Shown here one piece after another: positions 1 through 2,268 of a stretch of DNA of 64,000 nt (position 1 is the stretch's first letter; each line of letters opens with the position of its first letter). The position numbers were made by a program, and so were the translations under genes. Origin of the DNA: Yuukianura sp. NJ FZ-2021 (Eukaryota); NCBI GenBank assembly GCA_046563655.1, contig CM102285.1:4464001-4528000 (forward strand), read 5' to 3'. The notes beneath the pieces were generated by a model. It ran no database searches, was not told the origin of the DNA, and saw only the letters and a program-made list of their open reading frames with translations.

Positions 1-2268
1 CTCTGGTAGTAAGTTCTTTCCAGGTTTCCGTTTTTGATTTTCTTTAAAAAGTAATAAAATTACACAATCTGCACCTTTCATTAAGAAAGGCAAATATTTA
101 TCACCTTCAGTGGGGAGCATGTGTTTCCTGTACTTCTTTTCAGTTAATTTTCTGATATCAATTGACTCTGCTCTTTTCAAATAAAAATCTTTATCCAACT
201 CATAATTTTTAACATACAATTGGGTTACTCCAGGAGTATCTGTTGGTCCTTCGCAGCATACGGCGATTTGGTACAAATCTCCGGTTCTGTGACACAAAAT
301 ATCATGTACGACGACACTATTGGAATCAAAAGATATTGGAGGAATTTGACCGAATGAACAATTTGAAAAGTTAACCCCTTGAAGTTTGCAACTTTGGAAC
401 CACCCCTGATTCAATTCTGCATCTTTAAAATTTGCTCCACTAAAATCACTATTTCCACAAATCGAATTTCTAAAATTTGCTCCAGGAACTTGAATATTTT
501 GAAAATTATCCTCTTCAGTCCATTGCCCAGAAAAACTATAACCACTTAAATTGAGTATTGTCAAAGCATTGGAAGCCATTAGCTGTATTCCAGGAAGAGT
601 AGCTGACTTCCTAACAGTTCTTAATAGTAGATTTCGGAATTTTACATCCGTTTTAGCTCTACCCACAAGCATAGACAACGTACCGTGGAATTCTTGGTCG
701 TTGACATTTCTTTGATTAATTGGAAAATAGACTCCATCCCTTCGTCTATTCCAATTGGAATAGTAGTTCAGAGCACTACGGAATTTTATGAAAACTTCTC
801 TGCTCAAAAAATATTCAAACAGAGATAAATGGAGGAAACTGAAGACTTCACGATTTGAGTTAAAACGCAAAGGAGAAGAATCTCTCAGAAACAACAGATT
901 TTCAAGTCGAGTTTCATCAGTATCCCGATCATTCTGAGGAAATAGCATTTCCTCTAAAGCTCTGTTTCTGAAAAAATTTTTACAATTGGGACTCCAAGGA
1001 ACCCACAAATTCCAATACACGGATTCACATGCTGAAATTTCACCGTTAGATACCACCCCTCCTTTGAGAAGAGCACAACGCATTGCTAAATTCTGCGAGT
1101 AACCAACCATATATTGACAAAGAACACTTCTATTTTTATAAAGGAGTTCATCATGTCCACTTTCGCGCATTCTATCAACTTGGTAATTGAACCACGCTTC
1201 CGTAAATTTATCATACAAAAGAACCTCTGTTCTACAAATTTCTTCCAACTTTTGTGTAAACTCTTCAGATACATTTTCTTTACTACTATTAGAGACAAGT
1301 TTTTCAGCTTCTATTAACTTTGGCAGCAACTGACAAAGTATAGTCAAAAGAAAAACATTCTGTGCCAATCCTTGTAATTCTGGAAGCCTGTCTAGAAACC
1401 AGTACTTGTATTCTGAATCATCTGCAGTTATTTCCCACTGGAGATGGTCCTTAGTAGTTGATTTTGTCATCATCCATGGGTCATTGACCGTTGAATCATA
1501 CTGAATGTTCTGTAGAAATAGTGGTACCTGACAAATATACTCATTAACAACATCTCGCTCTAGCGGCAAAATAGCATAACTACGTCGACGTTTTCTCTTA
1601 TCAACACCAAATATTTTTGAGATATGGATTCCGGCAGCTACATTTGTTCGGCAAAAAGTAATAGTTCGAACATCTTTAAATTCCTTACTGTCCCATTTGT
1701 TATCTTCCCACAAGTTCGACTTGACATTGAGCTCATCATATCCATCCAAAATTAAGACTAGCTCGTGTGAGCAGAGATGCAGGTACAATTTCTTAAGTTG
1801 ATCATCCTGAATTTCAGTTGGAAAGTATTTTCTGTGTTCCATAATGTAACTAAACAAGATATCCGATCTGAAACTACATGATGCTCGAGATTTCTGTCTT
1901 TCGATCATTTCCGCAACTCGGTTTAACGGAACGTACATAGGAATTTTGTGTTGAATCTCTGGTGCTGAAGAGTCGTACAACCTTTTAGTTAATTTTAGAG
2001 CCAACCATGATTTCCCAGTTCCAGAATCTCCAAAAATGAGTGTTGACACCGGACCGTTGCAGTCAGAAATGTCATTAAAAATCTGGTCTTCCAAGTCGAC
2101 AGATTTAAAATTACCATCGGCCTGAGCTTGTGTAGTTTTTAGCCGAATGTGTAGTCCATAAGCTTCATCGTTAAAAACTGCTCCCTCAGAAGTAAATTCT
2201 GCTGAGTAGTATTCACTTTCAAATATTTCCTTGAATGTCGTCTTCCATGGGAATGAGAAATTCCACTC
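1..2268 (-). CDS. NACHT NTPase + pentapeptide-repeat protein (NLR-like); large internal exon, 3' end outside the window
   Basis: Manual translation of most of this minus-strand frame found no stop from the AG acceptor at 2270-2269 to position 1. Motifs seen: Walker A LIFGDSGTGKS (~2040-2008), Walker B LVLILDGYDE (~1762-1733), LPELQGLAQNVFLL, FLRDSSPLR, FLHLSLFEYF and ASNALTILNLSG, followed by pentapeptides (GANFR/NSICG/NSDFS/GANFK/DAELN). It is probably missing from the ORF track because no stop falls inside the window. The upstream exon(s) are unresolved; there is a candidate ATG near 2884. Confidence 0.9.

Follow-up and report, generated by a model that had tools for sequence, protein, structure and literature searches.

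The DNA studied here is a stretch of 64,000 nucleotides (contig CM102285.1 of GenBank assembly GCA_046563655.1, deposited as Yuukianura sp. NJ FZ-2021, positions 4,464,001 to 4,528,000), referred to below as the window. At its first end, on the minus strand, lies the N-terminal part of a gene of the STAND (signal transduction ATPases with numerous domains) type, in which a NACHT domain is followed by pentapeptide repeats. The protein encoded by this part is called P0001. Its frame contains 0 stops, against 30–83 stops in each of the five other frames of the same 2268 bases, and the chance of 756 open codons, computed from base composition, is ~9e-26. An earlier note on this DNA had described a minus-strand frame of about 756 codons carrying the motifs of a NOD-like receptor (NLR), and translation of the region confirms both the length and every motif quoted. 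Because the frame runs off the window at position 1, the C terminus of the protein is missing; a contig of DNA run X4 that covers positions 1–534 extends past position 1. The features of the locus and of the remaining window are collected in Table 1.

Table 1. Features of the NACHT-pentapeptide gene and of its neighborhood (positions in the window)
Feature	Position	Strand	Remarks
P0001, N-terminal part of NACHT-pentapeptide STAND gene	1..2268	-	756 open codons
113 codons after the repeats	1..339	-	residues 644–756; no Pfam match, pLDDT <50; possible start of a degenerate β-propeller
Pentapeptide-repeat β-helix, ~10 units	340..504	-	residues 589–643; Pfam and model
NOD module, NBD-HD1-WHD-HD2	544..2091	-	residues ~60–575; AlphaFold2 model and Foldseek
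Winged-helix motif FSFLHLSLFEYF with conserved His	808..843	-	residues 476–487
Pfam NACHT match	1699..2040	-	residues 77–190
Walker B with NACHT-type acidic pair, LILDGYDE	1732..1755	-	residues 172–179
Walker A / P-loop, GDSGTGKS	2008..2031	-	residues 80–87
TAG just upstream of the frame	2269..2271	-	AG a possible 3' splice acceptor behind a pyrimidine-rich run; putative
Candidate mini first exon, MAAVNAECL	2858..2884	-	start context AAAATGG, donor TTG/GTGAGG, phase 0; unproven
Cytochrome P450	4628-6259	+	single 544-codon frame, Pfam E 4e-28
DUF829 (TMEM53-like) paralogs, two	6758-7825 and 20203-21285		flank the BEL/Pao element
BEL/Pao long terminal repeat (LTR) retrotransposon, apparently intact	13962-19359	+	1603-codon frame (DUF1759, Peptidase_A17, integrase zinc finger)
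C-type lectin exon	24004-24612		animal-type neighbor
UDP-glycosyltransferase-like exon	27857-28273	-	Glyco_tran_28_C, UDPGT, and EryCIII-like matches
Long open frame, 503 codons	32140-33648	-	
Long open frame, 266 codons	33725-34522	-	
Long open frame, 205 codons	41492-42106	+	
Long open frame, 254 codons	43286-44047	+	

P0001 is a NACHT and pentapeptide STAND/NLR-like protein in which the nucleotide-binding motifs are all intact. In Pfam, NACHT (PF05729) is matched with 27.2 bits at a gathering score of 26.7, and Pentapeptide (PF00805, residues 596–631) with 27.3 bits at one of 20.2; Pentapeptide_4 is matched at E 2.7e-7 (residues 589–639). Across 44 aligned relatives, Gly-80, Gly-83, Gly-85, and Lys-86 of Walker A and Asp-175, Gly-176, Asp-178, and Glu-179 of Walker B are at least 90% conserved, and Phe-478 and His-480 of the winged-helix motif are invariant. 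The frame also contains LPELQGLAQNVFLL, FLRDSSPLR...FLHLSLFEYF, QRNV, and ASNALTILNLSG, and the pentapeptide units continue up to FGQIP. No leucine-rich repeat (LRR) or death-fold family is found among the Pfam matches of P0001. A PADLOC 2.0 search returned 0 anti-phage defense families for P0001 at E <= 0.01, and for three relatives it returned one HEAT-ARM_XIII match on the repeat region and one chance-level match.

The AlphaFold2 model of P0001, built with the 44 aligned relatives, has a mean pLDDT (predicted local distance difference test) of 80.4. It is confident for residues 1–643 and poor for residues 644–756. Comparison with the Protein Data Bank (PDB) using Foldseek yields NLRC4, NOD2, NLRP3, NAIP5, and other NLRs at E values from 6e-9 to 3e-5, with an identity of 10–14%. 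These matches identify the module as a true nucleotide-binding oligomerization domain (NOD), consisting of a nucleotide-binding domain (NBD), helical domain 1 (HD1), a winged-helix domain (WHD), and helical domain 2 (HD2). A short strand recurs every five residues between residues 593 and 638 of the model, which fits a pentapeptide β-helix. The NLR-like gene with NACHT and pentapeptide repeats that the earlier note had proposed is therefore seen in the Pfam matches, in the model, and in the Foldseek comparison.

No ATG precedes the P-loop in the frame, and P0001 has its first methionine only at residue 111, behind this loop. The letters directly before the start of the frame are ...ttctttgacatag, which resemble a 3' splice acceptor. 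When P0001 is aligned by phmmer with P0005, its closest full-length relative, residue 12 of P0005 pairs with residue 15 of P0001, so that only the start codon and a few residues are missing. This is most simply read as pointing to a short upstream exon, and Table 1 includes one candidate for it; by a crude count of donor positions, eight first-exon candidates have an equal (6 of 9 positions) or better score. We consider "exon" a fair label for the frame, with the splice itself putative. The description of the gene as intronized in the earlier note goes further than this, and its only basis is the missing ATG and the acceptor-like AG.

The region behind the repeats was judged from the relatives. 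BLAST alignments of P0001 to its closest relatives stop at residues 641–650, and phmmer alignments extend to residues 690–706 in three WD40-bearing relatives. The closest relatives, P0005, P0006, and P0007, are 1,598–1,673 residues long and 33–35% identical to P0001. They carry NACHT and Pentapeptide, and none of the three has a WD40-type Pfam match at E <= 1e-4, in agreement with the earlier remark that the part after FGQIP does not look like canonical WD40. Strong WD40 repeats are found in the next tier of relatives, which starts with P0008. When profiles are compared, the closest clade (the P0005–P0007 group, without P0001) aligns in hhalign with the WD40-bearing group over 1282 columns (residues 7–1583) with 100% probability. 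As far as the profiles can tell, this end-to-end alignment makes a degenerate propeller a likelier reading of the post-repeat region than a replacement.

At the C terminus of every full-length relative examined is a domain of ~200 residues, in which His, Glu, Tyr, Cys, and Trp residues are invariant (17 aligned sequences). The His precedes the Cys, which lies in an NC-type motif, and the domain is common to the bacterial and the fly-associated clades (P0005–P0037). Apart from one chance-level row, no Pfam family matches it at E <= 10. A model of the domain has a pLDDT of 74.6. A wide search with VIA-align matched this model to TseH (Z 10.8), CLN5 (8.3), DeSI-1 (7.6), Aichivirus 2A (6.4), a Bacillus cysteine peptidase (6.2), YiiX (6.0), and PLAAT4 (6.0), all of which are permuted papain or NlpC/P60-type His/Cys enzymes. 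Foldseek gave no match to the domain at E <= 0.001, the best being CLN5 at E 0.017. Judged from these models, the His/Cys domain of the relatives is plausibly an effector, in a C-terminal position that is unusual for NLRs; it lies outside the window. The C-terminal tetrapeptides of P0024, P0026, P0029, P0037, P0039, P0041, and P0074 are CaaX-like (e.g. CLIS, CSVM, CLMM). CaaX is a eukaryotic prenylation signal that is also used by Legionella-type effectors, and such ends hint that some family members may act inside eukaryotic host cells.

An exhaustive phmmer search with P0001 over 1.84 billion representatives found 857 matches at E <= 1e-3, of which 197 reach E <= 1e-10 and 13 reach E <= 1e-30. 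The best match is P0005, with 35% identity and E 1e-80. A profile search identified an animal homolog, P0155 (KAJ6641799.1), of the sciarid fungus gnat Pseudolycoriella hygida, which is encoded on a 155.8-Mb scaffold and is 33% identical to P0001 over 656 residues (E 2e-87). Its wrong name, NDUFB5, stems from a gene model in which it is fused to a neighbor. A homolog from P. hygida is already public under this wrong annotation, and the gene is not unique to the genome of the window. The same profile search named proteins of Linnemannia exigua, Tetrahymena malaccensis, and Paramecium octaurelia with identical domains. Word-index searches were sparse, with two matches (including Linnemannia zychae) in one and one match in another. 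Relatives in Mortierellaceae, their Mycoavidus endosymbionts, and ciliates had been named in the earlier note, and the Linnemannia, Tetrahymena, and Paramecium matches bear this out together with a preprint on the fungal receptors (bioRxiv 10.1101/2021.12.02.471044).

A scan of prokaryotes with one genome per species revealed 24 loci. They belong mostly to Legionellales, Coxiellaceae, Legionellaceae (one a Naegleria-associated bin), Francisellaceae, Midichloriaceae, Bacteroidota, and unclassified metagenome-assembled genomes (MAGs) of Gammaproteobacteria. Matches to P0001 are present in all five of the genomes that hold L001, L002, L003, L005, and L009, with five in genome G002 and 12 in G005. 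Among 400 genomes sampled from the class, only 4 have a match at E <= 1e-15, and the family is patchy in bacteria too. With P0012 as query, no match was found in the single genome available in the order of G001, and the order of G004 gave matches in 2 of 21; the latter, at 26–30% identity, are no closer than other bacteria. Neither P0012 nor P0033 had a relative in single-protein scans of metagenomes. The Protein Atlas pointed to bacterial NACHT and pentapeptide clusters with scores of 0.88–0.91, which serve as a lead only.

Trees were built on the region from NACHT to the pentapeptide repeats, a quick one with 69 rows and a careful one with 44 rows and 560 columns. L002, L006, L009, and L010 were left out of the careful tree because they cover less than 60% of the profile. 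The two trees agree. P0001 falls in a clade of seven rows (support 100/97) together with P0007 and a group of P0005, P0154, P0155, P0006, and P0153. The successive sisters of this clade are P0012 (97/87), P0011 (94/77, not starred), and P0033. The seven-row clade lies inside a 10-row clade (99/95), which lies inside a 34-row clade (99/97). The 34-row clade includes P0042, which is identical to L027 and located 2.26 Mb along contig 1 of the bacterial genome G201 (2.4 Mb in total), as well as P0021 (identical to L026) and P0028, which are both Gammaproteobacteria MAG proteins. Legionellales and Legionellaceae loci, together with L001 on a 2.0-Mb contig, are found on the outgroup side of the careful tree. 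Organism names were attached to three of the 30 relatives checked, namely P0155, P0028, and P0021.

This topology bears on the possibility that the gene is an ancient metazoan NACHT gene, inherited vertically, that this lineage retained and most animals lost. Its NOD fold is identical to that of animal NLRs, animal NACHT-WD40 proteins exist, such as qui-1 (which surfaced in a profile search through its WD40 part), and other animals could hide among the close matches, most of which are nameless. At the sequence level, however, no NLR is among the 17 PDB matches of P0001 at E <= 1, which are pentapeptide proteins only. A BLASTP comparison of P0001 with qui-1 of the beetle Aethina tumida (P0163), a vertically inherited insect protein of the NACHT/WD40 type, gave no significant similarity, with a best E of 0.26 confined to the P-loop. 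In three word-index searches, one sciarid fly was the only named animal homolog with NACHT and pentapeptide repeats. The absence from other animals is judged from named matches only, and the nesting of the clade among bacterial rows has a support of 99/97. Vertical descent is very improbable on this evidence, and P0001 appears to lie outside a vertical metazoan NACHT clade, in line with the horizontal acquisition proposed in the earlier note.

Horizontal acquisition, in turn, is well supported by the sequence comparisons, through the nesting among bacterial-type proteins and the lack of sequence kinship to animal NLRs. This part of the earlier proposal stands in that, except for the clade that contains the sciarid fly, the relatives are non-metazoan; its fungal connection is not upheld, because the fungal clade is not the nearest and the named neighbors are gammaproteobacterial. 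A transfer from a Mortierellaceae fungus, as food of fungus-gnat larvae, or from a Mycoavidus endosymbiont would suit the ecology of such flies, with which contact is plausible, and Linnemannia proteins have the same order of NACHT, pentapeptide repeats, and WD40 and match at E 1e-11 to 1e-12. The preprint cited above places this architecture in Mortierellomycota and derives it from Mycoavidus. Against such a source, the identity of P0001 to Linnemannia is only 23–24%, compared with 27–30% for the best proteins of bacterial type. The 69-row tree places the Linnemannia group across the midpoint root, outside the 32-row clade (100) that holds P0001. In addition, no Mycoavidus locus is among the 24 prokaryote loci, in which the sole Burkholderiaceae match, L022, is weak and partial. 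We regard a fungal or Mycoavidus source as very improbable. The donor looks bacterial rather than fungal in these trees, and the data favor a transfer from a bacterium of the Gammaproteobacteria/Legionellales-type radiation into a fly ancestor.

The NACHT gene is situated on animal DNA and is not a contaminant, as indicated by the animal-type genes on the same 64 kb and by the GC content of the frame (0.37), which matches that of its surroundings (spacer 0.33, P450 0.40). The animal genome setting given in the earlier note is borne out by the retrotransposon, lectin, lipase, and P450 of the window. Independent data also link the gene to animal DNA, through a bridging contig of a second study and through the P. 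hygida homolog on its 155.8-Mb scaffold.

To compare the locus between samples, four DNA runs (X1–X4) from two studies and with two organism labels were examined over positions 1–4700. A contig of 1247 bases from the second study and organism label spans positions 40–1286 with 57 differences and no gap. A second contig of that study, of 2036 bases, spans positions 1361–3364 and joins the frame to its upstream flank. Over the 4.7 kb, 40 of 450 single-letter differences were examined, and 26 of these 40 are inside the frame. Third codon positions hold 18 of the 26 (binomial p 2e-4). Fifteen of the in-frame differences are synonymous and 11 nonsynonymous, when 21% synonymous would be expected (p 4e-5), corresponding to a ratio of nonsynonymous to synonymous polymorphism (pN/pS) of ~0.19. 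None of the 12 listed insertions or deletions is inside the frame; all lie upstream, at position 2389 or beyond. The pattern of differences in the frame points to purifying selection.

These data are relevant to a further alternative, that the frame is a decaying pseudogene relic or an assembly contaminant without function. Such a relic could account for the missing ATG before the P-loop, for the post-repeat tail without a recognizable fold, and for a C-terminal part that lies outside the window. It is nonetheless improbable in view of the 756 open codons with all catalytic motifs intact, the bias of the differences toward third and synonymous positions with no listed insertion or deletion in the frame, and the contiguity of the frame with animal DNA, seen in the window as well as in contigs from two studies.

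Two other observations were made on the contigs of these runs. Three of the runs have contigs in which the 270 bases at positions 2490–2759, between the frame and the candidate first exon, are swapped for 16 other letters. The putative intron thus has an insertion/deletion (presence/absence) polymorphism, perhaps a small mobile element. Furthermore, partly similar contigs (85–99% alike, with loose ends) stack on positions 315–2041 in X1–X4 and do so neither on the first 314 bases nor on the upstream spacer. In run X1, 338 contigs fall on the 4.7 kb; 261 of them are less than 99% alike, and loose ends within the frame are common. The summed contig depth over parts of the frame exceeds that of the flanks in all four runs, where depth is not a copy number. 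With the same limit on how contig depth is read, the pile-up may perhaps reflect paralogs with a common NOD module and a different sensor part. In the window itself, no second copy was found by tblastn with P0001, P0005, P0007, and P0155.

Taken together, the joint explanation that we consider likely is an intact STAND gene with NACHT, pentapeptide, and possibly β-propeller parts in an animal nuclear genome, which came by transfer from a bacterium and is maintained by the host. Among the lower Diptera, the host would probably come from the fungus-gnat group. The gene would belong to a small clade shared with at least one sciarid fly, within a radiation that is otherwise bacterial and, where names exist, mostly of Gammaproteobacteria of the Legionellales kind. 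It would have passed from a bacterium into an ancestor of these flies, adapted to the base composition of the host, probably gained a short 5' exon, and been kept by purifying selection.

A mechanism can be proposed on this basis. From what is known of the family, the NACHT module would keep ADP in a closed state by means of the P-loop, the acidic pair of Walker B, and the winged-helix histidine. The pentapeptide β-helix would rigidly connect this module to a sensor formed by C-terminal repeats, which are outside the window. A ligand sensed by the C-terminal repeats would bring about nucleotide exchange and oligomerization. Oligomerization would gather the C-terminal His/Cys domains (permuted papain, NlpC/P60, PPPDE/LRAT-like) as an effector that is activated by proximity. 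Any part that the protein may play in immunity or cell death of the fly is speculative; the receptor role given in the earlier note was likewise a conjecture. A bolder version, in which flies of the fungus-gnat type carry a duplicated and diversified NACHT-pentapeptide family of bacterial origin that serves as intracellular immune or cell-death sensors with a C-terminal cysteine-hydrolase effector, is conceivable but doubtful.

Several points weigh against the joint explanation. The Pfam score for NACHT is marginal, only 0.5 bit over the threshold. The frame has no start codon of its own, and both its splicing and its expression are putative. The window leaves out two-thirds of the expected protein, with the sensor and the putative effector, and this part may be absent or broken. 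The selection signal is computed from the listed differences, which may mix alleles, paralogs, and a second organism label. In the trees, P0012, P0011, and P0033 are nameless, as are five of the seven members of the P0001 clade, so both the identity of the donor and the direction in which the gene was transferred depend on few named rows. The rows of P0028 and P0021 come from short MAG contigs (4.9 and 4.1 kb, respectively), which could be mis-binned. Finally, the fly host is inferred from the nearest named homolog and the animal-type neighbors only.

The rest of the window is occupied by genes and repeats of its own. The cytochrome P450 is 2.4 kb from the NACHT gene, on the opposite strand and in divergent orientation. 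Its sole methionine is inside an apparent membrane anchor, and an upstream exon may be needed here too. In the sciarid Bradysia coprophila, 28 foreign ("alien") P450s from springtails, mites, and fungi are described in PMC12051294, along with terpene synthases. The BEL/Pao element has a second frame of 301 codons with DUF5641, and its GC content (0.46–0.50) is set against ~0.37 around it. A pancreatic-lipase exon is also present on the 64 kb. For the UDP-glycosyltransferase-like exon, the best-matching families include microbial ones, and it may be another candidate for a foreign gene. The four long open frames have no Pfam family at E <= 0.001, and no RNA family of Rfam was found in the window.

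Compared with vertebrate NLRs (NLRC4, NOD2, NLRP3, NAIP5), P0001 has the same NBD-HD1-WHD-HD2 fold, the same Walker A/B logic, and the same winged-helix histidine. It differs from them in its identity of only 10–14%, with no match at the sequence level, and in the absence of LRRs and of CARD or PYD domains. The putative effector is, moreover, C-terminal in the relatives of P0001. Of the features that characterize canonical metazoan NLRs, neither LRRs, nor an N-terminal CARD, PYD, or BIR domain, nor sequence kinship was found, and the likeness is one of fold only. Fungal NLRs of the HET-E/NWD type, which combine a NACHT NTPase with a sensor of β-propeller repeats, are comparable to P0001. In contrast to these, P0001 has no N-terminal HET or effector domain, with only ~60 residues before NACHT, and a pentapeptide helix is placed between the NOD and the repeats.

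The nameless and gammaproteobacterial NACHT-pentapeptide-WD40 proteins (P0008–P0013, P0018 or L001, P0021, P0028, and P0042, along with those of Legionellales, Coxiellaceae, and Legionellaceae MAGs) have the domain order of P0001 and are 27–30% identical to it over ~570–630 residues. They share the C-terminal His/Cys domain with the P0005–P0007 group and differ in being bacterial, in their strong canonical WD40 repeats, and in their sporadic occurrence. This C-terminal domain is undescribed; it resembles permuted papain-fold enzymes (TseH, CLN5, DeSI-1/PPPDE, PLAAT/LRAT, Aichivirus 2A) in fold and in a His that precedes the Cys. Insects are commonly held to lack NLR-type receptors. A full-text literature search, which covered the main text of articles, found no NACHT gene reported for fungus gnats or as a transferred gene in other insects.

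A known parallel is in Mortierellomycota, which gained NOD-like receptors composed of NACHT, pentapeptide repeats (PPR), and WD40 from Mycoavidus endosymbionts, according to the preprint cited (bioRxiv 10.1101/2021.12.02.471044). The NACHT-PPR-WD40 architecture is thus already known, and it is the insect-type host that is unexpected. As in P0001, NACHT is followed by pentapeptide repeats in these receptors (Linnemannia P0003 and P0159), and the motifs GDSGxGK, LDGYDE, FxFxHxSxxEY, and AANAxTILN are common to both. The differences are that Linnemannia proteins are only 23–24% identical to P0001 and form a separate, distant clade, that the host of P0001 is an animal, and that the closest relatives of P0001 are without a recognizable WD40 signature. 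The Mortierellomycota and Mycoavidus case is a precedent for the transfer of the same architecture from a bacterium to a eukaryote. If our explanation is true, a bacterial-type NLR kept by selection in a fly lineage would be an immune-receptor architecture that entered animals horizontally, and the gene would join the increasing number of foreign genes described from sciarid flies. In the bolder version given above, horizontal transfer would have given insect immunity an NLR arm, in parallel to the transfer from Mycoavidus to Mortierella.

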